Assembly (NCBI GenBank): GCA_964531735.1
Contig: CAZHGD010000013.1
Span: forward strand, 12,510 to 76,509
Reading direction: 5' to 3'
Source of the DNA: an uncultured Fimbriimonadaceae bacterium
GTDB lineage: Bacteria; Armatimonadota; UBA10988
Length of the DNA: 64,000 nucleotides
In this document: positions 6,616-64,000 of the stretch, piece by piece
How the letters are laid out: every line of letters starts with the position of its first letter
Position numbering within the stretch: position 1 is the stretch's first letter
Notes under the pieces: generated by a model
The model's input: the letters and a program-made list of their open reading frames with translations, nothing else
Told to the model about the DNA's origin: nothing
The model's database searches: none
Position numbers and translations under genes: made by a program

Positions 6616-6617
6616 CG

Positions 6618-9215: not shown

Positions 9216-9227
9216 CGCCCCGGTGTC

Positions 9228-10103: not shown

Positions 10104-10134
10104 GGCCGAATTGTGCCGGTCGGCCGGGATACTG

Positions 10135-38191: not shown

Positions 38192-38210
38192 GCCGGTAGT
38201 GGAGAAGGCA

Positions 38211-42309: not shown

Positions 42310-43398
42310 ATGACGAGCAGTATGGGTACGTTCTACGACGACGCGGACGCTGCGCAGACCGGGCTGGTGCAGCGCGGCACGGACGACCGCCAGCACCTGC
42401 TGCGGGCCGAGGCGGAGGACTGGCTGCGCGCCGAGTGCGAGGCCATTGTCGAGCGCCGCCCGCAGCTCTGGCGGCCCGACTACCGCAGCATCGACGCTTT
42501 CCTGGCCAGTGTCGAGCCCAACCGGCAGCGCTGGTTGCAGGCCGTCGGTGACTTCGGGCCGGAGTGCGACGACGGCGAGCCGGAGATCGAGCCGTTCCTC
42601 GACAACGACGAGCTGGAAGCCTGCTGGATCACCTGGCCCTGGCGCCGCAACTACCGCATGCGTGGCATTCTCGCTGTGCCCAAGCACCGGAGCGGTCGCC
42701 TGCCGCTGGTCATCTGCCAGCACGGCATCGGCAGCACGCCCGAGCACACCTTCGGCTTCCTCGACAACTCGTGGGCCTACCGTGGCTTCGCGCGGCGGCT
42801 CGTCGGCGACGGGTTCGCGGTGTTCTCACCGATGCACGTCACCACCGGACCGGCGCGCGGCCGGCTGGAGCGCCTGGCGCTGATGCTCGGCGGCAAGCTC
42901 TGGGGCATTGAGATGAACCAGTTGTCGCGGATGCTCGACCGCCTGCTCGTGCGGCCCGAGATCGATCCCGAGCGCGTCGGCATGTGGGGGCTGAGCCTCG
43001 GCGGCGCCTACACGCTGATGACCATGCCCATCGAGCCGCGCATCAAGGTCGGCGTGTCGGCCGCCTGGTTCAACCACCGCGTCCGCAAGATGGTGGTCGA
43101 TGACCCGCGGCATAGCTGCTTTCTGTCGGTCAATGAGGACCACGTCTTCATCCCCGGCTGGCTGCGTGAGTTCAGCGACTCGGACCTGTGCGCGCTGATT
43201 GCGCCGCGGGCGTTCATGAGCCAGACCGGGAAGTGCGACGGCATCTCCTGGTGGCCGTGGGTGGCCGAGGAGTTCGAGGCGTCCAAGGCGCACTACGACA
43301 AGCTCGGCCTCGGCGAGCGGATTCGCCTCGACCTGCACGAAGGCGGGCACGAGATCCACTACGAGGCCGGCCTGGCCTTCCTGCGCCAGTGGCTGTGA
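42310..43398 (+). CDS. Alpha/beta-hydrolase-fold esterase (putative carbohydrate esterase)
   Basis: Nucleophile elbow GLSLGG. Dienelactone-hydrolase/acetyl-esterase-like topology. It lies within the CAZyme island. Confidence 0.75.
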   Translation: MTSSMGTFYDDADAAQTGLVQRGTDDRQHLLRAEAEDWLRAECEAIVERRPQLWRPDYRSIDAFLASVEPNRQRWLQAVGDFGPECDDGEPEIEPFLDNDELEACWITWPWRRNYRMRGILAVPKHRSGRLPLVICQHGIGSTPEHTFGFLDNSWAYRGFARRLVGDGFAVFSPMHVTTGPARGRLERLALMLGGKLWGIEMNQLSRMLDRLLVRPEIDPERVGMWGLSLGGAYTLMTMPIEPRIKVGVSAAWFNHRVRKMVVDDPRHSCFLSVNEDHVFIPGWLREFSDSDLCALIAPRAFMSQTGKCDGISWWPWVAEEFEASKAHYDKLGLGERIRLDLHEGGHEIHYEAGLAFLRQWL

Positions 43399-43413: not shown

Positions 43414-44490
43414 TCAGATGACGTAGTCCTCGACGAACACGCGGGTCTCGCGGAGGCCGACGTAGACGACATCGGCCACCGCGAGACCCAGTGCCGCCGC
43501 CTGCTCGTGCGAGAGCTGCGCCTGGATGCTCTGGCCGGACTCGTCAGTCAGTTCGCAGCGGACCACCGGTCCGGCCGACTGGATGCGCTGCACGCGAGCC
43601 CGGAACGACGGCCGGCCGTTGGGCGCGCGGCTGATGGCGATGTCGTGTGGCCGCACCACCAACTGCGCCGGCTGACCATCGGCCGCGTTGGTCTGCGGCG
43701 CCTCGATGACGACCGAGCCGAACACGGCCTTGCCCTGTTCGACACGGCCATGGAACAGGTTGACGCTGCCGAGGAACTCGGCCACGAACGGCGTCGCCGG
43801 ATGGTGGAAGATCTCGTCGGGCGAGCCGACTTGCTCGATGCGGCCGTGGTTCATCACCACCACGCGGTCGGCCACTTCGAGAGCCTCCTCCTGGTCGTGC
43901 GTCACGAACACGCTGGTCATGCGCAGCTCGTCGTGCAGGCGCCGCAGCCAGCGCCGCAGCTCGGCGCGCACCTTGGCGTCCAAGGCGCCGAAGGGCTCGT
44001 CGAGCAGCAGCACGTTCGGCTGCACCGCCAGGGCGCGTGCCAGGGCCACCCGCTGACGCTGGCCGCCCGAAAGCTGGGCGGGCAGTCGCCGGCCGAGACC
44101 CTCCATCTGGATCAGCTTGAGCAACTCGTCCACCCGGGCGCGGATCTCGGCTGGCGCAGGGCGGTCGCGCCGCGGCTTCACGCGCAGGCCGAAGGCGATG
44201 TTCTCCGCCACGCTGAGGTGCCGGAACAGCGCGTAGTGCTGGAACACGAAGCCGACCCGACGGGCGCCGACGGCCTGGCCGGTGACCTCCTGACCGCCGA
44301 ACAGCACCGCGGCATCGGGATTCGGGTCTGGTGCCTCCAGGCCGGCGATGATGCGGAGCAAGGTGGTCTTGCCGCAACCAGACGGACCCAGCAACGCCAC
44401 CAACTCGCCGTCCGGAACGGCCAGACTGACGTTGTCGAGCGCCTGCATGGCGCCGAACCGCTTGCTGATCTGGCGAACCTCAATGCTCAT
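43414..44490 (-). CDS. cysA: Sulfate/thiosulfate ABC transporter ATP-binding protein
   Basis: Walker [10 protein letters not shown]. Signature [15 protein letters not shown]. Walker [13 protein letters not shown]-terminal TOBE-like domain. ATG at 44490 follows GGGAGGA. Confidence 0.9.
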
Positions 44491-45368
44491 GGCAACGGTC
44501 CTCCCGCGGCGGCGTCGTTGCGCACCCGCCACAGCACCAGGCTCTTCAGCACCAGCGTCACCAGCGCCAGGACACAGAGCAGCGACGCGACCGCGAAGGC
44601 CGCCACGAAGTTGTACTCATTGTAGAGTATCTCGATGTGCAAGGGCATGGTATTGGTCTTCAGGCGGATATGGCCGGAGACGACCGAGACGGCGCCGAAC
44701 TCGCCCATGGCGCGCGCGTTGCAGAGGATCACGCCGTAGAGCAAGGCCCACTTGATGTTCGGCACGGTGACGCGCCAGAAGGTCTGCCAGCCATTGGCGC
44801 CGAGGACGACGGCGGCTTCCTCCTCCTCCGTGCCTTGCGACTCCATCAGTGGGATCAGCTCGCGGGCCACCAAGGGCACCGAGACGAAGAGGGTGGCCAG
44901 GACGATGGCCGGGGTGTTGAACAGGACGCGGTAGCCATGCTGCTGCAGCCAGGGGCCGAACCAGCCGAGGCGGCCGAAGAGCAAGACGAACAACATGCCT
45001 GCCACGACTGGCGAGACCGCGAACGGCAGGTCGATCAGCGTGACCAGAACGCTGCGGCCCCAGAAGCGGAACTTGCCCACGGCCCAGGCGGCGGCGAGCC
45101 CGAACAAGACGTTGAGCGGTACGACCACCGCCGCGGTGGTCAAGGTCAGCCGGATGGCGGCCCGGGCGGCCGGATCGGCGAAGCTGCGGAGATAGGCGTG
45201 GAGCCCTTGCCGCAGCGCTTCGGTGAACACGGCCAGCAGCGGGAGCACCAGGAACAGCAGCAGGAAGGTGAGCGCCACCAAGGTCAGGAGGCAACGGACC
45301 CAGCCCGGTTCAGTGATGGCACCTGGCGTAGCCTCACCTGACAGATGGCGGTCGATGGCCTGGGCCAT
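44487..45368 (-). CDS. cysW: Sulfate ABC transporter permease
   Basis: Six TM helices. Permease EAA-like loop [28 protein letters not shown]. Confidence 0.9.
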
Positions 45369-45372
45369 GGGG

Positions 45373-46200
45373 CTACCCTCCGGTGCCCAGCCGGCGGCTG
45401 CACGTCCATTGCAGCAGGTTGATGGCCAGCAGCAGTGCGAACGAGCAGAGCAACATCGCCACGCCGATGGCGGTGGCGCCGAGGTAGTCGTACTGCTCCA
45501 GCTTGGTGATGATCAGCAGTGGCGTGATCTCGGTGCGCATGGGCATGTTGCCGGCGATGAACACCACCGAGCCATACTCGCCCACAGCTCGCGCGAAGGC
45601 CAGGGCAAAGCCGGTCAGCAGGGCGGGGAGCAGCGCCGGCAGCAGGACGCGCCGGACGGTCTGCCAGCGGCCGGCCCCAAGGCTGGCCGCCGCCTCCTCG
45701 ACCTCGGGCTCGATGTCTTCGAGCGCAGGCTGTACCGTGCGCACCACGAACGGCAGGCCGATGAAGGTCAACGCCACCGCAATGCCCAGCGGCGTGAAGG
45801 CCACCTTCAGGCCGACGTGGGCCAGATGGTGCCCGATCCAGCCGTTCGGGCTGTAGAGGGTCGTGAGTGCGATGCCGGAAACGGCCGTCGGTAACGCGAA
45901 CGGCAGGTCGACCAAGGCGTCGACGAGCCGCTTCAGGGGGAACCGGTAACGGACCAGCACCCAGGCGACGATGGTGCCGAAGACCGCGTTGGTACCGGCG
46001 GCGGCCAGCGCGGCACCGAAGGTCAGCCGATAGCTGGCCAGGACGCGTGGGTGCGTGGTGGCCTCCCACCAGGCTGCCCAGCCGCCGCCGGCGGCCCTGC
46101 TGAACAGGGCCGCCAGCGGCAGCAGGACGAGGAACCCCAGGTAGGCCACGGTGTAGCCCATGGACAGCCCGAAGCCTGGCAGGACCCGAGAGCGTGACAT
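45373..46200 (-). CDS. cysT: Sulfate ABC transporter permease
   Basis: EAAASLGAGRWQTVRRVLLPALLPALLTG is an EAA motif within a six-TM permease. Confidence 0.9.
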   Translation of the reverse strand: MSRSRVLPGFGLSMGYTVAYLGFLVLLPLAALFSRAAGGGWAAWWEATTHPRVLASYRLTFGAALAAAGTNAVFGTIVAWVLVRYRFPLKRLVDALVDLPFALPTAVSGIALTTLYSPNGWIGHHLAHVGLKVAFTPLGIAVALTFIGLPFVVRTVQPALEDIEPEVEEAAASLGAGRWQTVRRVLLPALLPALLTGFALAFARAVGEYGSVVFIAGNMPMRTEITPLLIITKLEQYDYLGATAIGVAMLLCSFALLLAINLLQWTCSRRLGTGG

Positions 46201-46208
46201 GGCGGCCC

Positions 46209-47378
46209 TCAGGACTTCCGGTCGGCCGGTGTGTTCTGCTGGGCCGCCGGCTGGTAGATGCTGTCGAAGATGCCGCCGTCGGCGAAGTGCACCTTCTGCG
46301 CCTGCTTCCAGCCGCCGAAGACTTCGTCAATCGTGAACAGATCGAGCTTCTGGAACCGCGCGGCGTCGGCCGGCTCGGCCTGCTCCGGATGGCGTGGCCG
46401 GTAGTAGTGCTTGGCCGCGATCCTCTGGCCGGTGGCCGAATAGAGGAAGTCGAGGTAGCCCCTGGCGACGGCTGCGGTGCCTTTGCGCTCGACCACCTTG
46501 TCGACCACGGCCACCGACGGCTCAGCCAGGATGCTGACGCTGGGGGCGACGATCTCGAACTTGTCCTGGCCCAGTTCGTTGATCGACAGGTAGGCCTCGT
46601 TCTCCCAGGCCAGCAGCACATCGCCCAGCTCGCGCTGCACAAACGTGGTGGTCGAGCCGCGAGCGCCGGAGTCCAGCACGGGTACGTGCTGGAACAGCTT
46701 CGCCACGAAGTCCTTGGCCTTCGCCTCCGCCTGCTGCACAGCGGCGGCGGCGGCGGGGTCGTTGACCTTCTTCAGGTCACGCAGTTCGCGCTGGAGCACG
46801 TAGCCCCAGGCGGCCAGGTAGCTCCACCGCGCGCCGCCCGAGGTCTTCGGGTTCGGCGTGATCACCTGCACGCCGTCCTTGACCAGGTCGGGCCAGTCCT
46901 TGATCTGCTTGGGATTGCCCTTGCGGACGAGGAAAACGATGGTGGAGGTGTAGGGGGCGCTGTTGTTGGGCAGCTTGGCCTGCCAGTCGGCGGACAGCAA
47001 CTGCGCCTTGTCGGCGATGCTGTCGATGTCGTAGGACAAGGCCAGCGTGACCACGTCGGCCTCGAGTCCATCGATCACGGCGCGCGCCTGCTTGCCCGAG
47101 CCGCCATGCGACTGCTCGATCTCCACAGACTGGCCGGTCTTGGTCGCCCAGTCCTTGACAAACGCCTCGTTGATGTCCTTGTAGAGCTCGCGAGTCGGGT
47201 CGTAAGACACGTTCAGCAGCTTGACCGGGCCGGTCGTGGATGCGCCGCCGGACGTGCCGGCCGCGGCGACCTTGCCCGGCGGCGCAGGCGCTTGGCTCGG
47301 GCGGCTGCAGCCCAGCAGGAGGATATAGGTCAGCGCCACCCCCGCGGTCAGCCACGCAATCCATCGGCGATCCATCAT
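46209..47378 (-). CDS. sbp: Sulfate/thiosulfate-binding periplasmic lipoprotein
   Basis: Lipobox LLLGCS. Sbp/CysP-like block [10 protein letters not shown]...[25 protein letters not shown]. Confidence 0.88.
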
Positions 47379-47636: not shown

Positions 47637-48203
47637 ATGTCGTGGATCGTGCTGCTGGACGTGCTGGTGGTGGCCGCGCTGGTCTGGCTGATTCTGCGGT
47701 GGGCGGCGGACACCGGGTCTCGCCAGCAGGCGCGCCGGTGGGCGCGCGTGGCGCAGCGGCGCGCACCGGTGCGTGGTCGGGAGACGCCGTACGCAGGCGT
47801 GGTGCGTCACCTCGATGAACAGATCGGGGTGCTGTTGACCGAGCGCCGGCGCATCGAGGCCCTGCTGACCCGCGGGCGCAATCTGAGAGGGATGATGCAA
47901 CGGTCGCCGCAGTTGCGGTTGCGCGTGCCCAGTGTCGATCGTGTCCTCGACTACCTGACCGACAAGGGCCAGCGGATCGACGCGCTGATGGGACGCTACT
48001 ACCAGCACCGTGACAACCTGAAGATCCTGATGGCCGCGGAAGACTTCAACCGCGACCTGGAGGCGTACGAGGCCGGCAGCAGCGCCACCGACCCGTACGG
48101 GCCGTTCGAGGTGGAGACCGAAGCGCTGGATGAGGAGACTGAGCGCCTCTTGGCGGTGGCCGAGGCCGAAGCCGAACTGAACACGATGTTGCGGACCGGG
48201 TGA
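47637..48203 (+). CDS. Hypothetical membrane-anchored coiled-coil protein (188 aa)
   Basis: N-terminal TM helix MSWIVLLDVLVVAALVWLIL. Good GC3. RBS GGAG. It lies 48 nt upstream of the GAF/PAS kinase gene. Confidence 0.55.
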   Translation: MSWIVLLDVLVVAALVWLILRWAADTGSRQQARRWARVAQRRAPVRGRETPYAGVVRHLDEQIGVLLTERRRIEALLTRGRNLRGMMQRSPQLRLRVPSVDRVLDYLTDKGQRIDALMGRYYQHRDNLKILMAAEDFNRDLEAYEAGSSATDPYGPFEVETEALDEETERLLAVAEAEAELNTMLRTG

Positions 48204-51605: not shown

Positions 51606-51729
51606 CGAGACGTCTCCAGTAGTCCTCACCACTGTGCCCGCTGCTTCAGACGCGCCGCAAGCGGCGGGCGTCACGACTCGCGACCGACGACGGTTGACTC
51701 GCCGCTCGGCATTCCTGTATGCTAGGAGT

Positions 51730-52515
51730 ATGTTCCACGATATGGAAACAGAAGTCGCACCCACGGCGCCGGTGCAATCGGTGAAGCGGGCGCTGGACGT
51801 GCTCGATCTGCTGGCCGAGGTGAGCCTGCACGGGCAAGCGGCGTCGCTGCAGCAGGTGGCCGACCACCTGGGAGTGCCGGTGACGACGGCGCACAACCTG
51901 CTGAAGACGCTGATGGTCTGCCAGTACGCAGTCCGTGAGCCCACGGGCGGCTACGGGCTCGGCGTGCGCTGTGGCGACCTGACGCGGGCGGCACGGCTCG
52001 GCGCGAACCTTGGCGAGACGGCCGGGGCGGTGGTGCGACAGTTGGCCGAAGCGACTGGCGAATCGGTGGTGCTGGTGTCGCTGCTCCGCGGCCATCGCCG
52101 CCCGCTGCTCCGCGTGGAGGGCAGCGCGGTGGTCCGCGTCGACGCCGCGTTCGATGAACGGGAGCCGTTCTTCGAGATGGTCACCGGACGGGTGCTGGCG
52201 GCCTACGCGAGTCCGCGTGAGCTGGCCGAGGTCGTCCGCGTGCATGGCCTGCCCGGCGACGGCTGGGCCGGGATCGACACGCCGGAGTTGCTCGAGACGG
52301 CGCTGGCCGAGGTGCGGGCGGTGGGCTCGGCCGAGGACCGGCCCTCCGGCGGCGAGGTGACGTCGATGGCGGCGCCGGTGGTCGACAGTGGGGGTGCGCT
52401 GATCGGTGCACTGGGGCTCTACCAACCGTCGTTTCGCGCCGATGAGGAGCGCGTACGACGGCTGCGTGAGGAGTTGCAGGTCGCGGCCAGGCGGCTGGCC
52501 GACGCCCTGGAATGA
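51730..52515 (+). CDS. IclR-family transcriptional regulator
   Basis: wHTH SVKRALDVLDLLAEVSLHGQAASLQQVADHLGVPVTTAHNLLKTL plus a C-terminal effector domain. The alternative ATG at 51742 has better RBS spacing. Confidence 0.85.
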   Translation: MFHDMETEVAPTAPVQSVKRALDVLDLLAEVSLHGQAASLQQVADHLGVPVTTAHNLLKTLMVCQYAVREPTGGYGLGVRCGDLTRAARLGANLGETAGAVVRQLAEATGESVVLVSLLRGHRRPLLRVEGSAVVRVDAAFDEREPFFEMVTGRVLAAYASPRELAEVVRVHGLPGDGWAGIDTPELLETALAEVRAVGSAEDRPSGGEVTSMAAPVVDSGGALIGALGLYQPSFRADEERVRRLREELQVAARRLADALE

Positions 52516-52529
52516 CAGAGGAGGCAAAC

Positions 52530-54806
52530 ATGGCCAAGCAGCAGCCGGCCGTGGATTCGCGGTTGACCGGGCAGGTCAAGGCGTTCGCGCTCAACGAGCT
52601 GAACGCCGACCTGGTGGGCGTGGCGAACATCGAGCGCTTCGAACATGCGCCGCGCATGATGTCGCCCCAAGGCATCCTGCCGACTGCGCGCTCGGTGGTG
52701 GTGATGGCAGTACACCACCCGGACGCCGCGATCGAGCTGGGTGGCGAGACGCACCCGCAGGAGATCGGGCCGTACCGGGTGCAGTACATCATGAACATGC
52801 GGCTCGATGAGATGGCCTACCGGATGGGCCTGCTCCTGGAGCGCGAGGGCTGGGCCAGCGTGCCCATCGTCAGCTCCAACATCTGGCGCTACAAGGGCTA
52901 CAAAGAGCTGACCGAGCACTTCGCGCCGGACATCAGCCACCGGCACGCTGCCGTGGCCGCCGGGCTCGCCGATTTCGGCTACAGCGCGCTGGCCATCACG
53001 CCCGAGTACGGCGCGCGGGTCCGCTTCATCAGCGTGATCACCGAGGCCGTGCTGGAGCCGTCGCCGCTGATCGAGCCCGGCACGGTGTGTGACGACTGCC
53101 GTCTGTGCGTCGAGAACTGCCTGAGCCGGGCGCTGGCCAAGGAGATCCGCGGCACGAGCATCGTGCGCATCGAGGACAAGCAGTACACCTACGCGGACAA
53201 GAACCTCTGGCGCTGCGCTTGGGGCGAGCACTTCGACCTCGACCTGGACCTACCGATTCCGGACGTGGTCGACGAGGACGTCATTCTCGAGAACGTCTGC
53301 CAGCACGGCCGGCGGGGCGGCGAGATGGGCTCGTGCCTGCGCTACTGCGTGCCGGCGGCGCGACGGGTGATGGACCTGTCGTACTCCAGCGCGCCGCGCC
53401 GGCTGCGGCTGTCGCCGGAGAACGACGAGCCGCATCGGGGCTTCGAGCAGCAGGTGCAGGCCATCGCCTACGCCAACGGCCTGGACTTCACCGCCGTGGC
53501 GACGACCGCACAGGTGCAGGCGCTCGGCCAGGAGCTGACCACCTGGCTGCCCGAGGCCAAGGCGGCGGTGGTGATCGGCATCCACCATCGGCGAGCCGAG
53601 GGCGCCGACACCACCGGCGCCGCGCGGGTCTACCTGCTGGACGCTGCGGCCTATGACGTGGCCCGCGAGCTCGAGCGCCGCGGCTACGACGGCGTGTCGC
53701 TGACCGACTTCCCCGAGGCGACCTGGCAAGGCGCCTTCGAGGGCGTCGGCGAGGACCGCGCGGTGGTGACGCGGACGATCCTGACCACCGCACCGCTGGA
53801 GCCGACCTCGCGCCGGTTGAACACGCCGCGCCCGGCGGGCGACCAGAGCCCGGCGGCACTGAAGCAGCGGCTGCGTCGGTTGGCGGCCGAGTTGGAGCTA
53901 GACGCCGTGGGTGTGGCGCCGGCAGACCGGCTGGCCGCACTGCAACCGCACCTGGCCGCCATCTACGACGGCCGTGAGGTGCTGGTGGCGCGCGACCAGT
54001 CCGGCTACTTCCAGCCTTACGACCCGGTGGTGCGCACCGAGACCCTCCGGGTCAAGTCGCCGTCCGACCACCTCGCCGGCGCCAAGTCGGTGATCGTGCT
54101 GGCGCTGCGGCTGCCCAGAGCGTCGGTGGAGTGTACGGCCAAGCCGCCGGCGGAAGCGGTCGGACCGTATGCGTTCGCGCAGTACGAAGCCGTCAACATG
54201 CTCCGGCGCACGGGCTTCCGCGTGATGCGCTGGCTGGAGGACGCGGGCTTCAAGGCAGCGTTGACCTTCGACCTGACCGGCACGGGCTCCGCGGTGGGCA
54301 ATCCGCGTGGCGAGCAGCCGGACGCGTTCTGCGGTCGCTTCGAGGCCGTGGCCGCGGGCCTGGGGCGCCTGACCAAAGGGGGCTTTGTGGTCACCCCTGA
54401 GCTGGGCGCCAACGTGCGGTTCGTGGCGATCGTGACCGATGCCGCCATCGAGGCCGACGACACGCTCAAGGACGACGGCCTGACCGCCGCGTGCGACGGT
54501 TGTGACCGCTGCCTGCAGGCGTGCCACACCGCCGCGCACGAAGGCGCCGTCGAGGTGCCGCTGGATGGCGTCGTGGAACGCTTCCACGTCATCGAGCACA
54601 AGCGCTGTGACTGGGCTAAGCGCTACTCGCTGATCGGTGAGGAAGGCGTCAACTTCCTCGGCTGGAACCTGCACCTGCCGGCTCCGGACGTCATCACCGT
54701 CGAGGCCCTGGCTGAGGGACTGAAGCAGCAGCCGGCCATTCCGAAGTACCGCCCGTGCAACTTCGAGGCGTGCGTGTTGGCCTGTCCCATGTCGCGCACC
54801 GCGTAG
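52530..54806 (+). CDS. Tandem-duplicated epoxyqueuosine-reductase (QueG)-like / DUF1730-type 4Fe-4S protein (758 aa)
   Basis: Two homologous halves, each with a DUF1730-like N-terminal block (LNELNADLVGVANIERFEHAP and LELDAVGVAPADRLAA) and a CxxCxxCxxxC ferredoxin motif (CDDCRLCVENC and CDGCDRCLQAC). GAGGAGG sits 5 nt upstream of the ATG at 52530. The start overlaps the IclR stop region. Confidence 0.7.
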   Translation: MAKQQPAVDSRLTGQVKAFALNELNADLVGVANIERFEHAPRMMSPQGILPTARSVVVMAVHHPDAAIELGGETHPQEIGPYRVQYIMNMRLDEMAYRMGLLLEREGWASVPIVSSNIWRYKGYKELTEHFAPDISHRHAAVAAGLADFGYSALAITPEYGARVRFISVITEAVLEPSPLIEPGTVCDDCRLCVENCLSRALAKEIRGTSIVRIEDKQYTYADKNLWRCAWGEHFDLDLDLPIPDVVDEDVILENVCQHGRRGGEMGSCLRYCVPAARRVMDLSYSSAPRRLRLSPENDEPHRGFEQQVQAIAYANGLDFTAVATTAQVQALGQELTTWLPEAKAAVVIGIHHRRAEGADTTGAARVYLLDAAAYDVARELERRGYDGVSLTDFPEATWQGAFEGVGEDRAVVTRTILTTAPLEPTSRRLNTPRPAGDQSPAALKQRLRRLAAELELDAVGVAPADRLAALQPHLAAIYDGREVLVARDQSGYFQPYDPVVRTETLRVKSPSDHLAGAKSVIVLALRLPRASVECTAKPPAEAVGPYAFAQYEAVNMLRRTGFRVMRWLEDAGFKAALTFDLTGTGSAVGNPRGEQPDAFCGRFEAVAAGLGRLTKGGFVVTPELGANVRFVAIVTDAAIEADDTLKDDGLTAACDGCDRCLQACHTAAHEGAVEVPLDGVVERFHVIEHKRCDWAKRYSLIGEEGVNFLGWNLHLPAPDVITVEALAEGLKQQPAIPKYRPCNFEACVLACPMSRTA

Positions 54807-54824: not shown

Positions 54825-54862
54825 ACAGCGCGTCGCGGCTCCGGCCGCGGCGCGCTGTTTCG
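54825..54862 (+). terminator. Rho-independent terminator candidate after the QueG-like gene
   Basis: ACAGCGCGTCGCGGC-TCCG-GCCGCGGCGCGCTGT forms a 15-bp stem (one G:U pair), followed by TTTCG. It sits 19 nt after the stop. Confidence 0.55.
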
Positions 54863-57887: not shown

Positions 57888-58445
57888 ATGGCCAAAGCAG
57901 CGCCGGCAGCCCGGTTGGTGACAGCCGAGGAACTGCTGGCCGTGCCCGACGACGGGCAACGGCGGGAGTTGGTGCGCGGGGAGGTGGTGACCATGGCACC
58001 GGCTGGTATGCGGCATGGGGCGTGGGGCGACCGCCTGGGCTGGCGTCTGGCGCAGCACGTCTACGAGCACGGTCTGGGGCTCACGTTCAGTGCCGAGACC
58101 GGCTTCGTGCTGTCGCGCGGGCCAGACACGGTGCGGTGTGCCGACGCGTCTTTCGTAGCGGCGGGCCGACTGGACGATGCCGACGCCGCCGGCTTCGTGC
58201 CCTTGGCGCCGGATCTGGTTCTGGAGGTCGTCTCGCCGTCGGATCGCCAGAGCCAGGTCACGGCGAAGGTCATGGAATGGCTGGACGCTGGCGTGACGGT
58301 GGTCTGGGTGCTGTGGCCGGAGTCGCGGCGCCTGCAGGTCTGGCGGTCCGCGGACGACATCGTGACGCTTGGTGCTGACGACACGCTGACCTGCGAGGAC
58401 CTGCTGCCGGGCTTTGCAGTGGCGCTGGCCAAGGTGATGGCCTGA
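57888..58445 (+). CDS. Uma2-family (DUF820) restriction-endonuclease-fold protein
   Basis: TAEELLAVPDDGQRRELVRGEVVTMAPAG...VRCADASFV...APDLVLEVVSPSD...WLDAGVTVVWVLWPE matches the Uma2 PD-(D/E)xK pattern. RBS GGGAGAGGAG. Confidence 0.8.
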   Translation: MAKAAPAARLVTAEELLAVPDDGQRRELVRGEVVTMAPAGMRHGAWGDRLGWRLAQHVYEHGLGLTFSAETGFVLSRGPDTVRCADASFVAAGRLDDADAAGFVPLAPDLVLEVVSPSDRQSQVTAKVMEWLDAGVTVVWVLWPESRRLQVWRSADDIVTLGADDTLTCEDLLPGFAVALAKVMA

Positions 58446-58497: not shown

Positions 58498-59691
58498 ATG
58501 AAGGATGCCGAACTCGTTGCACTAGTGGAGCAGGGGCTGGACCAGGGCGGGGGCATCCTGCGCCTGGCGCCGTGTTGGGTGCCGCGCTCGTTCCTGATGC
58601 CGGGGCGACGGTTGAAACTGCATCCCAACGACATCTACGCACTCGGGTCGCACCGCGGCGGCATCGATGAGCGTTGGCTGTCGTCGGTCACCAACGCCGA
58701 CAACGGCCCGGGCACGCCCGACGACGAGGGCCTGAGCTACGTCGACGTGAGTGGCCAGCGCCTGCTGCTGCGTGACGCGGTGGGCCTGGTCGGGCAGCGG
58801 CTGCTCGGCGCCGAGGCCATGGCCGAGCACGGCGGCTGGGCGATGCTCTGCAAGTTCTTCGACAACCTGGGACCCATCCCGCACCACATGCACCAGATGG
58901 ACGAGCACGCCGAGAACGTCGGCAAGATGGGCAAGCCCGAAGCTTACTACTTCCCGCCGCAGCTCAACTTCATCGAGAACAACTTCGCCCACACCTACTT
59001 CGGCCTGGAGCCGGGCACCACCAAGAACCAGGTGATCGACTGTCTCCAGCGCTGGGACGAGGGCGACAACGGCATCCTCCAGCACGCCAAGGCGTACAAG
59101 CTGACGCCGGGCACCGGGTGGGACGTGCCGGCCGGCATCCTGCACGCGCCCGGCTCGTTGGTGACCTACGAGCCGCAGCGGGCCTGCGATGTATTCGGTA
59201 TGTTCCAGAGCCTGGTCGAGGGCCGGCCGGTGCCGCGCGAACTGCTGACCAAGGACGTGCCCGAGGACAAGTGGTACGACTGGGACTATCTGGTCTCGAT
59301 GCTCGACTGGGACGCCAACGTCGATCCGGAATTCGGCGCGCACCGGTTCTGTCCGCCGGTCCCCGTCGGCGGGCCCGGCATGGGCGACGACCTCGGCTTC
59401 CAGGAATCCCGTGTGGTCTACGGCAGCCCGCACTACAGCGCCAAGGAGCTGACTGTGCTGCCGGGCCGCCAGGTCACCATCCATGATGAGGCGGCCTATG
59501 GCTTCATCCTGATGCAGGGCCACGGGACGATGAACAAGCTGCCCGTGGAGACGCCGGCGATGATCCGCTACGGGCAGATGACCTGGGACGAGGGCTTCGT
59601 CTCGGTCGAAGCGGCGCGTGGCGGCGTCACCATCCAGAATCTCAGCGAGGTCGACCCGCTGGTCATGCTGAAGCACTTCGGCCCGGCCTGA
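58498..59691 (+). CDS. Cupin-type sugar isomerase-like protein (weak resemblance to type I phosphomannose isomerase); function uncertain
   Basis: AGGAGGAG RBS. 397 aa. HHMHQMDEH and ILHAPGS blocks loosely match the PMI metal-ligand regions. Confidence 0.5.
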   Translation: MKDAELVALVEQGLDQGGGILRLAPCWVPRSFLMPGRRLKLHPNDIYALGSHRGGIDERWLSSVTNADNGPGTPDDEGLSYVDVSGQRLLLRDAVGLVGQRLLGAEAMAEHGGWAMLCKFFDNLGPIPHHMHQMDEHAENVGKMGKPEAYYFPPQLNFIENNFAHTYFGLEPGTTKNQVIDCLQRWDEGDNGILQHAKAYKLTPGTGWDVPAGILHAPGSLVTYEPQRACDVFGMFQSLVEGRPVPRELLTKDVPEDKWYDWDYLVSMLDWDANVDPEFGAHRFCPPVPVGGPGMGDDLGFQESRVVYGSPHYSAKELTVLPGRQVTIHDEAAYGFILMQGHGTMNKLPVETPAMIRYGQMTWDEGFVSVEAARGGVTIQNLSEVDPLVMLKHFGPA

Positions 59692-59763: not shown

Positions 59764-62700
59764 ATGTCTCTGTGGTGGTGCCTGGTTCCGTTGCTGTCCT
59801 TGGCCCCGGCGAATGAGCTGCCGGAATCGCTGCTGCTCAACGGGTCATACGTTGGCACGCACGGGTGGAGCATCTATGGCGGCCAACTGGCCGACCGAGC
59901 GGGCGGCGGGCGCTGCCTGCGGCTGAACGGCCGCGGCAGTGCCAGCCAGGATATCGACGTCGAGCAGCCGGGCACCTACTCGGTCGCTGTGGACTTGCGC
60001 GTGACGGACGTCCGGGCCGTGGGCGGACCGGGCTATGCTTACGCCGCCGTCTACCAGCTCGACGCCAACGGCGAGCTCGTTGCGTTCCGTGACTTCGTCC
60101 AGTTGACCGGCACGCAGGAGTGGAAACGCTACACGTTCACGTTCCAGTCCCATCCCCTGGCGCGGACCGTCAGCATCCGCTGCGGCCTGTTCCAAGCCGA
60201 GGGCACGGCCGAGTACGCCGACTGGACGCTCGTGGCCGGTGCCCAGCCAAAGCGCGCCGACGAGGTGCGCTCGACCGGGAGCAGCCGGTCTGGTGGCACG
60301 CGCGCGGCCATCCTGAACGAGCCGGGCATGCCCGTGCGCGGAGCGGCTTCGCAGCCGGCCGTCATCCGCACCATCCTCGAGCAGGCGGGCTTCACCGTCG
60401 AGTACCTGTCGGCGGCGCAGATGGCGGACACCAGCCTGTTGCGGCCCGACCGTTTCGGCGTGGTGGTCCTGCCGACCGGGGCCAGTTTCCCCGCCGCTGC
60501 GCGTCGCGCCTGGCTCCGCTATCTGCATCGCGGCGGGTCGTTCGTCAGCCTTGGTGGCTATGCCTTCGACCATCTGGTGGCCAAGACCGACGCCGGCTGG
60601 GTCACCGAGAAGGAGCGTCTGGCCAAGGCGCTCCAGGAGGCCACTTCGCCAGAACGCTCGCTGCTGGCCGATGGTGGCTTCGAGCGCACCGAGACGGCCC
60701 CCATGGGCGGCGAGTCGCTCGACGCTCGCTGGCACCGCAACCACGAGTCCGCCGTGATCGTCAGCGAGGGCGCGGCCGAGGGGCAGCGGTGTGCCCAGGT
60801 CAGCGCAGCGCCCGGTGCCGCGGTCGACGAGCGCAAGTTCATGCTCGACCTGCCGGCGAAGCCCTGGCGCTACCGCGTCAGCGCTCGGGTGCGCACCAAG
60901 GAGGTGACTGGCCCCGGCTTTGCCTATGTGGCGCTGTACCAGTACGACGCCAACGGCAAGCTGATCAAGCATCGTGACTTCATGGTGCGGACCGGCACGA
61001 CAGACTGGACCGACGGCGGCTACGAGTTCGTGCCCGAACAGGGCGTGACTCGGCTGCACATCAAGTTCGGCCTGTACCGCGCGACGGGCACCGCCTGGTT
61101 CGACGACCTGCGGCTCTGCAACGTGACCGGTGTGGCCTACGAGCCGATCAACACGGCCATGGGTGGTCCGGGAGACGGCCTGCAACTGCAGCCGACGCAG
61201 CTTGGTGCGTTCGACCCCTCGGCGCCGCTGAAGCGTGCCGTGCGCGCCGAGACCGCGGCTGGTCAGCCGCTGGCGCAGACGCCGGTGGCCGTTGGCGGCG
61301 ACCTGCAAGGATGGATGGCCACCGGCGTGCAGGGGCAGAACAATGCCCGTTGGGTGCCGATCCTCGAGACGCGCGACCGGTACGGCCGACCGCGTGGCGC
61401 CGCCGCAGCGTTCCTGCTGCACTACGGTGGCTACTTCGCCGGTTCGCGCTGGGCGTACTTCGGCATCGACAATCGTGACCTGTTCAGCGATGCCGCCTCC
61501 CCGGCGGCGCGCCTGCTGGGCGAGGTCGCCCGCAACGTGGCGCGCGCGCCGTTCCTGCACAACCTGGCGTGTGAGCAGGCGTTCCACCGTCCAGGCGAGA
61601 CGGTCAAGGTGAGTTGCGCGGTGGCGGTGGCGGAGGCATTGCCGGCCGGCAGCGCGGTCCGGTTTGCGGCCGGTCCGGCCGATGCGCCAGCTCGCGTCAC
61701 CGGCACCACCAAGCTGGTCGGCAGTGACGCGCAGGCGGCTCAGTGGCAGTTCCAGGTGCCGAACGACGCGGTCGGCAGTTGGCAGGTCCAGGCCACGCTG
61801 TTGGCCGGCAACCGCGAGGTGGACCGCCTGACCAGCGGCGTCGAGTTGCCGGTCGGCGCGGCCGTCGAGCAGACGCCGGAGCTGCGGTTCGAGCGCAACT
61901 CGTTCACGCTCGGCGGGCGGCCGATGTTCATCTTCGGCACCGACGACTACGGCGTCTCGTATGACTCGCCGTACCGCGGCGCCGCCACCTGGCGGCACGA
62001 GATGCAAGCGATGCGTGACATCGGGCTGGATCTCTACGAGAACCTGCAGTACACGCATCCCAACCACGCCATGGCCGACCAGGACTGGCGGCGGTTCGAC
62101 GCGGTGGCGCAACTGACTCAGCGCTTCGGGCTGATCTTCATGCCGGGCATCCTGATCGGGCACAACGTGGTCTGTGACGACGCGGAGTTGCAGCGGCAGA
62201 GCGCGCTGTGCCGCGCCTACGCCGAGCGCCTCGGCCGCACACCGGCGCTGCTGTGGTACATCAACGGCGACTACCAACTGACCCCACACGAGGCCCCGGC
62301 GGTGACCAAAGCGTTGTGGGAGCGGTGGCTGCACCAGCGCTATCCGACTGCCGAACTCCTGCGGGCGGCGTGGCCTGGTGCCGAGAACGCGCCTTGGCCG
62401 GTGCCCGACACCGGCCGTTGGGACGACCGGGCGCAGATCGATCGCGCGCAGTTCTGCGGCGACCTGATGCGGCGCTGGAACGCCGCGCATGTGGCCGCCA
62501 TCCGGCAGGGCGATCCGCAGCATCCGATCACCTCGGAGTACTACCAGATGCCGTTCTACGGCATCGACCTGCGGCTGACCATCGAGGGGCAGAACGTCTC
62601 CAACATCGGGTACTTCGACCTGCCCCAGAAGGATCTCGATCTGCTGCCGCTGCGGCTGGCCTGGAACGACCTGCGGCAGCGGGGCAAGGGGATTGCCCTC

Positions 62701-64000
62701 GGCGAATACGGGGTGAAGACGCACCCGGCCTGGGCCACGAGCAACGGCGCGACGGGGTACCACATCCAGCGCACCGAGGAGGAGCAGCAGCAACTGCACC
62801 TTGGCGTGGCCGCCTACACCCTCGGCATGGGTGGTGCGAAGGTGCAGAACTGGTGCCTCAAGGACGCGGAACAGTCCGTCTTCCCCTGGGGCTTCCTCTA
62901 TCCGCAGCAGTTGCTTGCCAAAGACGCGGCGTTGACGCACCGGAACGCCTCGCTGCTCTGGCGGCATCTGGCCCCGGCCGATGAGCCCGCGCCGCTGGCC
63001 GTCTGCCTGCCCGGCCGGATGCGGGTCGGCGCACGGGAGCATCTCGGCCTCAATGCCGGCTACCGGGCCTTCGACGCCCTGCTGGGCCTGCACGCCGACT
63101 TCCGCGTGATCGATGACCACGAGGCCGGCGACCTTGGCCCCGGCCTGCGGGCAGTGGTACTGCCGGCGGCTTACGCGCTGGACGACGCCGCCTTCCAGCG
63201 ACTGACGGCCTGGGTGCGGGCTGGTGGCCACCTGCTCGTCAGCGGTGATCCCTCCTACGATGAGCTGCGGCGCCCCGCGGCGACCGACCGCCTCGCGGCG
63301 CTGTGCGGAGTCCGGCGCGTCGCCGCGCTCGGGCCGCCGGCAGAGCGTGGTCCGCAGGCGGTGTCGGTCGACCTGGGCGCGCCGGTGGGCACGACCACGC
63401 TCCGCCCCTGCGTGCGCGTTGCCGCAGCCGGCGCCGAGGTGCTTGCCGGGAGCGACGACGGCCCGGTGCTGACCCGCTACAAGCTGGGACAGGGCCAGGT
63501 GACCTACCTGACCGACCCGCTGGAACTGAGCCCGGAGAGCGAGAGCGGCGAGCCGACCCGGGCGGTGTATGCGCGCTTCCTGACCGCGGCGGGCATCGCG
63601 ACCCGCCAGGTAACGCCGAACCACCCCTGGCTGCACGCCATGGAGCGGCCGACGCGCAGCGGTCGGGTACACGTGCTCTTCGGGCGCCAGGAACTGGCTG
63701 CGGCCACCGTGCAGACCAAAGCGGGCGCGCTCACGCTGGGGCTGCGCACGCGCTGGCCGGCGCTGGCTCACCTGGGTGCCGACCGCGCGGTGCGCCTGGT
63801 CGTGGCGAGTGGCGAGGCGTCGCTGGACGGGCAGCCGCTGGCCTCACTGCGCGGCCTGCAAGGGCTGGTGGCACTGGACGGTCAGGACCTGCGCCGCTCC
63901 GAAGAGCTGCTGGTGACGCCGTTCGATGCGGGCGAGGTGCGCCTGCCGGCGCGGCCGGGACGCTACCAGATGGTGGTCGGCGACTTGGTCGGGGGCCGGT
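59764..64000 (+). CDS. Secreted multidomain glycoside-hydrolase-like protein with two CBM_4_9-like domains, a TIM-barrel core and a GH42-like C-terminal alpha/beta domain; 3' end runs off the window
   Basis: Open frame of >1410 codons from the ATG at 59764, absent from the ORF track because it has no stop. Signal peptide MSLWWCLVPLLSLAPA. Two GxFE...W CBM-like modules. LWYINGDYQLTPHE and IFMPGILIGHN TIM-barrel blocks. VLPAAYALDDAAFQRLTAWVRAGGHLLVSG resembles the trimerisation domain of GH42-family beta-galactosidases. Strong GC3. The antisense 1308-aa ORF (59845..63771) is rejected. Confidence 0.7.
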   Translation, partial: MSLWWCLVPLLSLAPANELPESLLLNGSYVGTHGWSIYGGQLADRAGGGRCLRLNGRGSASQDIDVEQPGTYSVAVDLRVTDVRAVGGPGYAYAAVYQLDANGELVAFRDFVQLTGTQEWKRYTFTFQSHPLARTVSIRCGLFQAEGTAEYADWTLVAGAQPKRADEVRSTGSSRSGGTRAAILNEPGMPVRGAASQPAVIRTILEQAGFTVEYLSAAQMADTSLLRPDRFGVVVLPTGASFPAAARRAWLRYLHRGGSFVSLGGYAFDHLVAKTDAGWVTEKERLAKALQEATSPERSLLADGGFERTETAPMGGESLDARWHRNHESAVIVSEGAAEGQRCAQVSAAPGAAVDERKFMLDLPAKPWRYRVSARVRTKEVTGPGFAYVALYQYDANGKLIKHRDFMVRTGTTDWTDGGYEFVPEQGVTRLHIKFGLYRATGTAWFDDLRLCNVTGVAYEPINTAMGGPGDGLQLQPTQLGAFDPSAPLKRAVRAETAAGQPLAQTPVAVGGDLQGWMATGVQGQNNARWVPILETRDRYGRPRGAAAAFLLHYGGYFAGSRWAYFGIDNRDLFSDAASPAARLLGEVARNVARAPFLHNLACEQAFHRPGETVKVSCAVAVAEALPAGSAVRFAAGPADAPARVTGTTKLVGSDAQAAQWQFQVPNDAVGSWQVQATLLAGNREVDRLTSGVELPVGAAVEQTPELRFERNSFTLGGRPMFIFGTDDYGVSYDSPYRGAATWRHEMQAMRDIGLDLYENLQYTHPNHAMADQDWRRFDAVAQLTQRFGLIFMPGILIGHNVVCDDAELQRQSALCRAYAERLGRTPALLWYINGDYQLTPHEAPAVTKALWERWLHQRYPTAELLRAAWPGAENAPWPVPDTGRWDDRAQIDRAQFCGDLMRRWNAAHVAAIRQGDPQHPITSEYYQMPFYGIDLRLTIEGQNVSNIGYFDLPQKDLDLLPLRLAWNDLRQRGKGIALGEYGVKTHPAWATSNGATGYHIQRTEEEQQQLHLGVAAYTLGMGGAKVQNWCLKDAEQSVFPWGFLYPQQLLAKDAALTHRNASLLWRHLAPADEPAPLAVCLPGRMRVGAREHLGLNAGYRAFDALLGLHADFRVIDDHEAGDLGPGLRAVVLPAAYALDDAAFQRLTAWVRAGGHLLVSGDPSYDELRRPAATDRLAALCGVRRVAALGPPAERGPQAVSVDLGAPVGTTTLRPCVRVAAAGAEVLAGSDDGPVLTRYKLGQGQVTYLTDPLELSPESESGEPTRAVYARFLTAAGIATRQVTPNHPWLHAMERPTRSGRVHVLFGRQELAAATVQTKAGALTLGLRTRWPALAHLGADRAVRLVVASGEASLDGQPLASLRGLQGLVALDGQDLRRSEELLVTPFDAGEVRLPARPGRYQMVVGDLVGGR

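Follow-up and report, generated by a model that had tools for sequence, protein, structure and literature searches.

A triple-core protein of the reductive dehalogenase/QueG superfamily paired with an IclR-family regulator in an uncultured Fimbriimonadaceae bacterium

Epoxyqueuosine reductase (QueG) and its relatives are ordinarily single-module proteins, and a gene for a 758-amino-acid relative, encoded directly downstream of a regulator gene in an uncultured Fimbriimonadaceae bacterium, raises the question of how this protein is built and what it might reduce. The gene lies in a 64,000-nucleotide stretch of contig CAZHGD010000013.1 (here called the window), and an initial annotation had read it as a fusion of two complete QueG-like modules in a carbohydrate locus. 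The open reading frame (52512..54806) has a GC3 of 0.91 that is uniform along its length. Translation probably starts at the ATG at 52530, located 5 nt 3' of a GGAGG, which gives 758 amino acids, and an identical gene call is found in a public assembly. The regulator gene ends with the TGA at 52513-52515, leaving a gap of 14 nt before this start, and the overlap of the two genes described previously exists only for the alternative in-frame ATG at 52512. A frameshift or assembly artefact joining two genes was ruled out by the ubiquity of full-length homologues and the uniform GC3; since such homologues, 743-827 amino acids long, are found in hundreds of genomes, the fusion is genuine. Downstream of the gene, an 81-nt region folds with -46.8 kcal/mol (z = -4.26; 0/200 shuffles folded equally well). 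The hairpin in it, described earlier as a strong terminator, is a probable one: just three U residues follow the stem, and a consensus terminator scan did not call it (Table 1).

Table 1. Coordinates of the reductase gene, its parts and the associated signals in the window
Feature	Position	Strand	Basis or remark
Promoter-like site TTGACT-18-TATGCT, just 5' of the IclR start	51694..51723	+	Consensus scan
Gene for an IclR-family regulator (261 aa), probably in one transcript with the reductase gene	51730..52515	+	Pfam
Operator-like palindrome TTCCACGATATGGAA, overlapping the IclR gene start	51733..51747	.	Palindrome scan of related loci
Shine-Dalgarno GGAGG, 5 nt ahead of ATG 52530	52520..52524	+	Sequence inspection
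Whole gene, triple-core RDH/QueG-superfamily protein, 758 aa	52530..54806	+	Stop codon 54804-54806
N module, residues 1-295, core plus ferredoxin-type domain	52530..53414	+	Proposed catalytic module
N-module first Fe-S motif CDDCRLCVENC (C187-C197)	53088..53120	+	Cys in 77/77 homologues
N-module second-motif end G264-E265-M266-G-S-C269-L-R-Y-C273	53319..53348	+	hhalign register
Middle domain, residues 296-435, vestigial third core	53415..53834	+	hhalign
C module, residues 436-758, core plus ferredoxin-type domain	53835..54803	+	Proposed auxiliary/electron-transfer module
C-module first Fe-S motif CDGCDRCLQAC (C655-C665)	54492..54524	+	Sequence, conservation
Probable terminator: 15-bp GC-rich perfect hairpin, then UUUCG	54825..54858	+	Folding

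The polypeptide holds three homologous nitroreductase-like cores of the class-III cobalamin enzyme type, two of which bear a bacterial-ferredoxin-type domain, and the core between them is vestigial. The two halves of the protein (residues 1-357 and 358-758) aligned with each other in BLASTP (E 3e-20, 28% identity over 245 amino acids), and family profiles of residues 1-295 and 436-758 aligned in hhalign with a probability of 100% (E 2.2e-42 over 257 columns), which confirms the internal duplication that had been proposed; each half likewise carries its own CxxCxxCxxxC motif, as had been noted. The middle domain matched the N core (probability 97.3, E 2.1e-11) and the C core (E 2.5e-11) in hhalign, and contains neither cysteines nor the motif loops; three matched stretches in many homologues are in keeping with the triple-core layout. 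The initial reading of two complete fused modules is right about the tandem QueG/RDH-like fusion but falls short otherwise: there are three cores, a ligand of one cluster is missing from the N module, and conservation differs greatly between the three parts. A DUF1730-like block, attributed to both halves, was found in the N half only, where Pfam QueG_DUF1730 matched just residues 45-64 with 16.8 bits against a gathering threshold of 25.1.

The class-III layout, in which a nitroreductase-like core is followed by a bacterial-ferredoxin-type 2x[4Fe-4S] domain, is present in both modules, with all eight cysteines in the C module (655/658/661/665/693/743/748/752) and seven, not eight, conserved cysteines in the N module (187/190/193/197/229/269/273). 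The cysteine expected at position 264 is replaced by glycine, the residue aligned with C743 by hhalign. Among the 77 homologues in which residue conservation was counted, position 264 is Gly in 75, E265 is present in all 77 and M266 in 76. Mean identity to the window protein is 68% in the N module, 50% in the C module and 32% in the middle domain, and 66 positions are invariant in the N module compared with only 3 in the middle domain.

Class-III enzymes share no cobalamin-binding sequence motif (PMC4646009), so that cobalamin binding cannot be read from the sequence. The N-module candidates for the three residues that lie above the corrin in RdhA, Y82, N117 and R165, were each present in 77/77 homologues; their counterparts in the C module are Y547 (63/77), D581 and R630 (77/77). 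Arg305 of the reductive dehalogenase (RDH) PceA aligned exactly with both R165 and R630, whereas QueG has no equivalent of this arginine (PMC4646009). Y82 and Y547 fall within about two residues of PceA Y246/NpRdhA Y426, and the Tyr and Asn/Asp equivalences come from weak alignments that span an insertion of about 18 residues. In the same approximate alignment N117 lies near the position of PceA Asn272, the QueG Asp130 position is taken by N117 in the N module and by D581 in the C module, and the candidate tyrosines stand in the contexts G-P-Y82-R and G-P-Y547-A instead of the D-Y-H that, together with a catalytic Asp, is strictly conserved in QueG (St D100-Y101-H102 and D130; PMC4646009). A loop of the C module (P592, R593, G594, D598 and N602) is well conserved too and, because D581 and R630 are kept alongside it, this module may itself be catalytic. 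Two further highly conserved motifs, WGEHFDLDLDL and NIWRYKGYK, are absent from RdhA and QueG.

An AlphaFold2 (AF2) model of the protein (pLDDT 94.7, pTM 0.95) placed it among the same relatives. The best Foldseek matches in the PDB were NpRdhA (E 1e-11), PceA (1e-9) and QueG (4e-8), all three with a probability of 1.00, as well as the RDH in 8q4h, and beyond RDHs and QueG only weak matches to nitroreductases and MMACHC were obtained. The similarity is remote: comparison with PceA gave TM scores of 0.38-0.43 and an rmsd of 6-7 Å, and for residues 296-758 against NpRdhA (4RAS) the domain order agrees but the two do not superpose as rigid bodies (rmsd ~19.5 Å, TMq 0.32-0.34). In sequence, both modules matched PceA, the 8q4h RDH, QueG and NpRdhA over the segment 'AVAAGLG...TPEFG.NVR' and the first Fe-S motif. 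The three cores, the asymmetric pair of ferredoxin-type domains and the missing cysteine ligand set the protein apart from all solved members of the class.

Homologues of the window protein fell into at least 728 clusters, the best 120 of which are mostly 740-830 amino acids long, and relatives are encoded in 288 species-level genomes; about 60 fused representatives remained after clustering at 50%. The hosts are mostly Armatimonadota and PVC-group bacteria, including Planctomycetota, Kiritimatiellia and animal-gut Lentisphaeria and Victivallales, plus a handful of Clostridia and a single Spirochaetes genome, and the fused architecture is thus conserved across several phyla. No Pfam or NCBIfam model matched the window protein at its curated threshold, and a literature search combining QueG and RDH terms with the host taxa found nothing relevant to a triple-core family. 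In the window itself no further paralogue was detected by tblastn with the two halves and single-module relatives as queries.

The gene upstream encodes an IclR-family regulator, as first annotated, with HTH_IclR (4.7e-12) and IclR_C (1.1e-14) domains. The iclR-reductase gene pair recurs in public contigs and was present in 40 of 80 species-level loci; an adjacent regulator of either the IclR or the AraC type was found in 53/80 loci and in 43 of the 59 loci whose flanks were complete, the other 16 having neither. The promoter-like site ahead of the IclR gene was the one candidate found, against 0.2 expected in shuffled sequence. A TTCCA-N5-TGGAA palindrome (at least 9/10 matches) occurred between -200 and +40 of the IclR start in 10/40 related loci compared with 32/2000 random 240-nt windows, an enrichment of about 15-fold, which suggests that the regulator binds there. 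As a conserved dehalogenase/QueG relative that travels with its own regulator, the protein is probably an inducible reductase for a small molecule, and its pairing with a ligand-sensing regulator offers a practical way to the substrate.

Overall, we favour, with moderate confidence, a class-III cobalamin/[4Fe-4S] reductase that works in the cytoplasm under the control of the regulator, with a catalytic N module and an auxiliary C module. Such an enzyme would be self-contained and induced by its substrate, and its single chain would form a covalent pseudo-dimer, much as in the catabolic RdhAs, whose vestigial core copy stands in for the second subunit of the PceA dimer (PMC10463259). We propose the N module as the catalytic one because it is the most conserved and carries invariant Tyr, Asn and Arg residues at the RdhA above-corrin positions. 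Its cluster beside the presumed corrin would have three cysteine ligands, with the invariant Gly-Glu-Met replacing the fourth. The C module would hold two conventional [4Fe-4S] clusters and might be supplied with electrons by ferredoxin, flavodoxin or another low-potential donor, or else act as a structural partner; its role as an electron relay is a guess. The regulator may respond to the substrate or to a compound related to it, and may control its own operon with the reductase gene by way of the TTCCA-N5-TGGAA operator. As to the chemistry, a two-electron reductive elimination like those of RdhA and QueG is probable, in which a small molecule would lose a halide or the oxygen of an epoxide or hydroxyl group; tRNA is not expected to be a substrate.

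Whether the family further represents a third class-III cobalamin/[4Fe-4S] branch beside RDHs and QueG, that is, a regulator-coupled reductase of anaerobic glycan degraders with a new chemistry, is a more speculative proposal that we put forward only tentatively. Dehalogenation and epoxyqueuosine reduction are, to our knowledge, the only reaction types established among class-III B12 enzymes. The QueG structure paper foresaw further class-III families, which would be hard to find for want of a cofactor motif (PMC4646009), and the triple-core family is a concrete candidate for one of these. The substrate of such a branch would be a metabolite; loci rich in hexosaminidase and sulfatase genes in Kiritimatiellia and Lentisphaerae hint that it may originate from host or algal glycans. 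Its active site would combine a corrinoid with a three-cysteine cluster whose iron is free or Glu-ligated, in a three-core pseudo-dimer that would contain as many as four clusters and might have two distinct active sites. If cobalamin is bound, the family would supply a further reason for the corrinoid need of its glycan-degrading hosts.

Alternatively, the protein could be a catabolic or detoxifying soluble RdhA-type dehalogenase of natural organohalides, induced via IclR or AraC, which we consider unlikely even though RdhAs (NpRdhA, PceA and 8q4h) are its best structural and sequence matches. It resembles NpRdhA of Nitratireductor pacificus, BhbA and JtRdhA in being soluble: no RR motif of a TAT signal was found in residues 1-60, and no signal peptide is present. 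It further shares with the catabolic RdhAs a polypeptide in which a degenerate core precedes a full core bearing a 2x[4Fe-4S] domain, and a basic residue at the K488/R305 position (NpRdhA/PceA) that is invariant in both modules, and N117 lies close to the Asn272 position. In those cytoplasmic enzymes the vestigial core copy is packed on the functional core and mimics the dimer interface, in the place of the second PceA subunit (PMC10463259). PceA of Sulfurospirillum multivorans (4UQU) and the subunit of the 8Q4H RDH complex have the same core and ferredoxin-domain fold, and the AVxAGLG...TPEFG.NVR segment and the CxxCxxCxxxC motif of both align with either module; with PceA, the protein has Arg305 and candidates for Tyr246 and Asn272 in common. 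PceA is a homodimer, which the tandem modules of the window protein may imitate.

Several features argue against this assignment. The NCBIfam RDH model TIGR02486, although the top match, scored 55.8 bits against a cutoff of 160.35, and the Pfam dehalogenase domain gave no match at E<=1. Neither an adjacent RdhB membrane anchor (the gene neighbours being the IclR gene and a TIM-barrel gene) nor, in the Pfam search and the AF2 model, a C-terminal PDOR-type reductase domain was found; the latter is present in most catabolic (NpRdhA-type) RdhAs. Identity to the catabolic RdhAs is 12-13%, and the rigid-body arrangement differs. The protein also has an additional complete module in front of the vestigial core, which brings it to three cores and as many as four clusters, and the loss of a cysteine ligand in the N module is not an RdhA feature. 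Unlike PceA and 8Q4H, the protein has no periplasmic or membrane context, and it joins two differing modules in one chain where PceA pairs identical subunits; its sequence identity to the two is 16-20%, with a TM score of ~0.4. The hosts, moreover, are glycan-degrading anaerobes, and some of the loci lie amid hexosaminidase or sulfatase genes, not genes of aromatic catabolism.

A cobalamin-independent iron-sulfur enzyme, in which an RDH/QueG-like core has lost its corrinoid and the three-cysteine cluster of the N module binds substrate through a free iron or a Glu265-ligated one, as in aconitase- or IspH-type enzymes, appears more doubtful still. The absence from the N module of a cysteine aligning with C743, the near-invariance of G264-E265-M266 and the WGEHFDLDLDL and NIWRYKGYK motifs foreign to RdhA and QueG would all fit such an enzyme, as would the nitroreductase-like core fold, which takes different cofactors in different families. 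No cobalamin riboswitch was found in the window or in six related loci, an absence that says little about cofactor use. Against this reading, the Tyr, Asn and Arg at the above-corrin positions of the N module are invariant, and the closest folds are all corrinoid enzymes.

It is highly improbable that the protein is a dedicated redox partner of the downstream sugar-oxidation genes, which encode xylose-isomerase-like TIM barrels and a Gfo/Idh/MocA oxidoreductase (domains AP_endonuc_2, GFO/IDH/MocA and AP_endonuc_2, in this order). These genes are adjacent and on the same strand in the window, and two other loci have a Gfo/Idh/MocA gene no more than ~1.5 kb away, but genes with either domain are very common in these phyla, and the strong hairpin separates the reductase gene from them. 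In a Pfam census of the 118 nearest non-regulator neighbours across the 80 species-level loci no enzyme partner recurred (maximum 3/118), AP_endonuc_2 and GFO_IDH_MocA lay outside the 25 commonest families, and no electron-donor gene was conserved among the nearest neighbours. When 903 locus ORFs were clustered all against all, the sole recurrent clusters were IclR, AraC and a prepilin-like family of PVC bacteria. Because the non-regulator flanking genes vary, a role serving the downstream sugar genes, initially suggested as possible, is unsupported. Nor do the surroundings form the coherent carbohydrate locus that had been assumed, the genes upstream encoding a sulfate-type ABC transporter, a GAF-PAS histidine kinase and a beta-lactamase-family protein.

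An unusual tRNA epoxyqueuosine reductase is scarcely credible: automatic JGI names, the weak TIGR00276 and DUF1730 matches, the cytoplasmic class-III fold shared with QueG (5D08 and 5D6S; ~250 aligned columns), and D581 at the Asp130 position of the C module speak for it, but every curated threshold was missed by a wide margin (TIGR00276, 45.6 bits against a cutoff of 200), the arginine absent from QueG is present, D-Y-H is lacking, and the gene is paired with a substrate-type regulator as expected of an inducible system and has several paralogues in some genomes. The C-terminal HEAT-repeat domain of QueG, proposed to bind tRNA (PMC4646009), gave no Pfam match either, and none can be present at the C terminus because the chain stops 6 residues after C752-P753; where a HEAT domain might sit behind the N module, an alpha/beta core copy follows instead. 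Canonical QueG was rejected on the same grounds, the doubt previously voiced about a tRNA-modification role was well placed, and the name 'QueG', where the family carries any name, is wrong.

Single-module paralogues of 277-390 amino acids, with neither a Pfam family nor informative names, occur in adjacent pairs or triplets beside an IclR gene in three of the related loci. They are homologous to both modules of the window protein (23-118 bits, E 2.8e-8 to 7e-37) and share its regulator association, but have one core and all 8 cysteines, whereas in the window protein the modules are covalently linked and the vestigial core is an addition. They fall into two subtypes, A and B. In a comparison that asked whether the fusion arose from a type-A and a type-B gene, both subtypes scored higher against the N module, one set being biased by having been collected with the N module as query, and type B does not have the long insert of the C module. 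The two subtypes probably form hetero-oligomers.

The protein encoded at positions 52530 to 54806, which the initial annotation had described as a tandem fusion of two QueG-like modules, proved to contain three copies of the nitroreductase-like core found in class-III cobalamin enzymes. Its two halves align to each other with an E value of 3e-20, and family profiles of residues 1-295 (the N module) and 436-758 (the C module) match at E 2.2e-42 over 257 columns, which bears out the internal duplication. The two-module anatomy is incomplete, however, in that the middle domain (residues 296-435) is a third core copy, aligning to residues 7-180, the N core, with an E value of 2.1e-11 and to the C core with one of 2.5e-11. 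Deletions in the middle domain, from which cysteine is absent, coincide exactly with conserved loops of the full modules, and triplication agrees with the three stretches that match the N module in many homologues. AF2 predicted the full-length structure with very high confidence (pLDDT 94.7, pTM 0.95). The unusual fusion is real, with an anatomy more unusual than had been described. We found no paper on this protein family in the literature; the protein is a new architectural, and probably also a new functional, variant inside a known superfamily.

No Pfam or NCBIfam model reached its curated threshold on this protein: DUF1730 scored 16.8 against a cutoff of 25.1, the RDH model TIGR02486 55.8 against 160 and the QueG model TIGR00276 45.6 against 200. 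Foldseek searches against the PDB returned NpRdhA, PceA, the RDH 8Q4H and QueG at probability 1.00, all later matches being weak nitroreductase or MMACHC hits, and both module profiles match PceA, 8Q4H, QueG and NpRdhA over 'AVAAGLG...TPEFG.NVR' and the first CxxCxxCxxxC. The protein is therefore, by fold, a member of the class-III cobalamin/[4Fe-4S] superfamily, outside both characterised families, RDH and QueG. Of the known systems, the catabolic RdhA group (NpRdhA) comes closest; its members carry a vestigial copy of the cobalamin-binding core that mimics the dimer interface (PMC10463259). Residues 296-758 show the same succession of domains, with a vestigial core, then a full core and then an Fe-S domain. 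For this region NpRdhA was the best Foldseek match (E 1.5e-12, ~570 columns), although the superposition is poor (rmsd ~19.5 Å, TMq 0.32-0.34) and an NpRdhA-like spatial arrangement is therefore not demonstrated. In contrast to all solved members, the protein carries an additional complete module ahead of the vestigial core, has a presumed three-Cys proximal cluster in this first module, lacks TAT, RdhB, PDOR or HEAT parts and is paired with a regulator.

The three parts are unequally conserved. Across 77 full-length homologues, mean identity to the window protein was 68% in the N module (66/295 positions invariant), 50% in the C module (16/322) and 32% in the middle domain (3/140). Three hallmark positions have been defined for class-III enzymes in the QueG structure paper: a Tyr above the corrin in all of them (Y246 in PceA, Y101 in St QueG), a second position held by Asn272 in PceA and Asp130 in QueG, and the RdhA-specific Arg305 (PMC4646009). 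In the alignments Arg305 falls precisely on R165 and on R630, both of which occur in 77/77 homologues. For the other two positions the equivalences are approximate: at the Asn/Asp position the N module has N117 (77/77) and the C module D581 (76/77), and the candidates for the Tyr are Y82 (77/77) and Y547 (63/77; Leu, Ile or Met in 12). Relative to RdhAs, ~18 residues are inserted in this region of the N module. Since class III has no cobalamin-binding sequence motif (PMC4646009), corrinoid binding is not decidable by sequence. The C module retains the canonical eight Cys (655, 658, 661, 665, 693, 743, 748 and 752), and the N module has seven (187, 190, 193, 197, 229, 269 and 273), with G264 at the counterpart of C743, followed by E265 (77/77) and M266 (76/77). 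From the RdhA ligation pattern, as in the PceA structure, we take the missing Cys to be a ligand of the corrin-adjacent cluster; this proximal cluster of the N module would then have three Cys ligands.

The best-supported reading is that the protein would be a stand-alone, inducible, cytoplasmic reductase, a covalent pseudo-dimer with a catalytic N module and an auxiliary C module, performing RdhA/QueG-type reductive elimination on a small molecule. Its architecture, superfamily, conservation pattern and regulator pairing are established; its cobalamin content, this division of labour, the electron donor and the substrate are all presumptive. A dehalogenase of natural organohalides appears unlikely, and a cobalamin-free Fe-S enzyme working through the three-Cys cluster slightly more so. 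An inducible reductase of this kind would be relevant to B12 and Fe-S enzymology and to PVC and Armatimonadota physiology.

The GC3 of the reductase ORF is usual for coding regions here (window GC 69%). The probable start is ATG 52530, preceded at five bases by GGAGG (52520-52524), which yields 758 aa, and the same product is called in a public assembly with identical sequence. With this start a 14-nt gap separates the gene from the IclR stop (TGA 52513-52515); the overlap previously proposed holds only for the alternative in-frame ATG 52512. Of the strong terminator placed after the gene, the hairpin folding stands, but the U-tract is short and a consensus terminator scan missed it. Beyond the hairpin lie genes with AP_endonuc_2, GFO/IDH/MocA and AP_endonuc_2 domains, in that order, and 5' of the IclR gene are a beta-lactamase-family gene (minus strand), a GAF-PAS histidine kinase and a sulfate-type ABC transporter. 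The surroundings are therefore mixed and do not form a coherent carbohydrate locus, although a carbohydrate locus had been suggested.

Features of the window and of related loci from other genomes (L numbers; positions are those of each locus)
Feature	Position	Strand	Remarks
Reductase ORF	52512..54806	+	ORF call; GC3 0.91
IclR regulator gene	51730..52515	+	upstream; HTH_IclR and IclR_C domains
Promoter-like site TTGACT-18-TATGCT	51694-51723		just before IclR start
15-bp palindrome TTCCACGATATGGAA	51733-51747		overlaps IclR start
Perfect 15-bp hairpin	54825-54858		downstream of reductase gene; z = -4.3 against shuffled sequence
Beta-helix protein gene	38199-41012		flanks 416-aa protein gene
416-aa protein gene	41028-42278	+	CxxCxxCC putative zinc- or iron-chelating domain
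Weak acetyl-xylan-esterase-like gene	42310-43398		flanks 416-aa protein gene
Sulfate/thiosulfate-type ABC transporter	43414-47378	-	four genes: ATPase with CysA C-terminal and TOBE domains, two permeases, SBP_bac_11 binding protein
188-aa ORF	47637-48203	+	coding-like GC3 0.88; no Pfam match at E<=1e-4
Putative Uma2-family endonuclease gene	57888-58445	+	directly 3' of sugar-isomerase/oxidoreductase genes
397-aa ORF	58498-59691	+	coding-like GC3 0.91; no Pfam match at E<=1e-4
1308-aa ORF	59845-63771	-	no Pfam match; failed GC3/GC2 coding filter; may not be a real gene
Palindrome in other loci	L052 9868, L062 9131, L066 1241, L010 9189, L051 9900, L053 9868, L069 452, L085 335
Single-module genes	L004 962-3831	-	adjacent pairs/triplets
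Single-module genes	L005 12098-14166	+	adjacent pairs/triplets
Single-module genes	L006 14028-16006	+	adjacent pairs/triplets
Single-module genes	L079		three ORFs upstream of fused gene
Tandem full-length fused paralogues, Lentisphaerae	L004 (same as L049) 5606-7921, 8001-10343		after one IclR gene

An IclR or AraC gene was found within 500 nt of the reductase gene in 53 of 80 species loci (43 of the 59 flanked by 1 kb or more at each end): IclR upstream on the same strand in 25, downstream on the same strand in 12 and divergent in three, and AraC divergent upstream in 13. Ten of 40 related loci, from three phyla (Armatimonadota, Planctomycetota and Lentisphaerae), carried the sequence TTCCA-N5-TGGAA (at least 9/10 matches) between -200 and +40 relative to the IclR start, at the start or promoter of reductase-linked IclR genes, compared with 32 of 2000 random 240-nt windows, an enrichment of ~15-fold. 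This motif is probably the IclR operator, to which we infer that the regulator binds, and the pattern fits an autoregulated iclR-reductase operon. Neither the window nor any of six related loci showed a cobalamin riboswitch.

When regulators are set aside, none of the Pfam families among the 118 nearest neighbours occurred more than three times, and a partnership with the adjacent sugar genes is poorly supported. In four Kiritimatiellia loci (L005, L022, L030 and L034) the fused gene lacks a neighbouring regulator and belongs to a co-directional gene cluster that also includes NAGLU (GH89), GH123, two GH20 hexosaminidases, an MFS transporter, an epimerase and single-module paralogues, which hints at amino-sugar or host-glycan metabolism. 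Sulfatases adjoin the reductase gene in a few loci; the GH-rich and sulfatase loci together offer a lead towards glycan-derived substrates, through an association that is not conserved.

A large protein database held 728 homologous clusters, the best 120 of which are 47-100% identical to the query, 741-827 aa long except for two partial sequences, and unnamed, 'hypothetical' or automatically named 'QueG', an identity that is itself poorly supported. With one genome scanned per species, 288 genomes had a relative; the best 80, metagenome-assembled throughout and in many cases originating in animal guts, groundwater and digesters, belong to Armatimonadota, Lentisphaeria/Victivallales, Kiritimatiellia, Planctomycetota/Phycisphaerae, one Spirochaetes and a few Clostridia and Limnochordia. 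Exhaustive HMMER searching with the N module as query gave 1700 representatives at E<=1e-3. Some 60 fused forms rank on top, and the single-module proteins below them (260-350 aa) have no informative names either. The single-module paralogues (277-390 aa, no Pfam family) fall into two subtypes, A and B, both with eight Cys, and their genes adjoin one another in twos or threes, often with a separate IclR gene alongside. They look like the form of this enzyme family that is hetero-oligomeric and not fused. Next to the tandem fused pair in L004, three single-module genes accompany a divergently oriented IclR gene, an arrangement that is a local expansion of the family.
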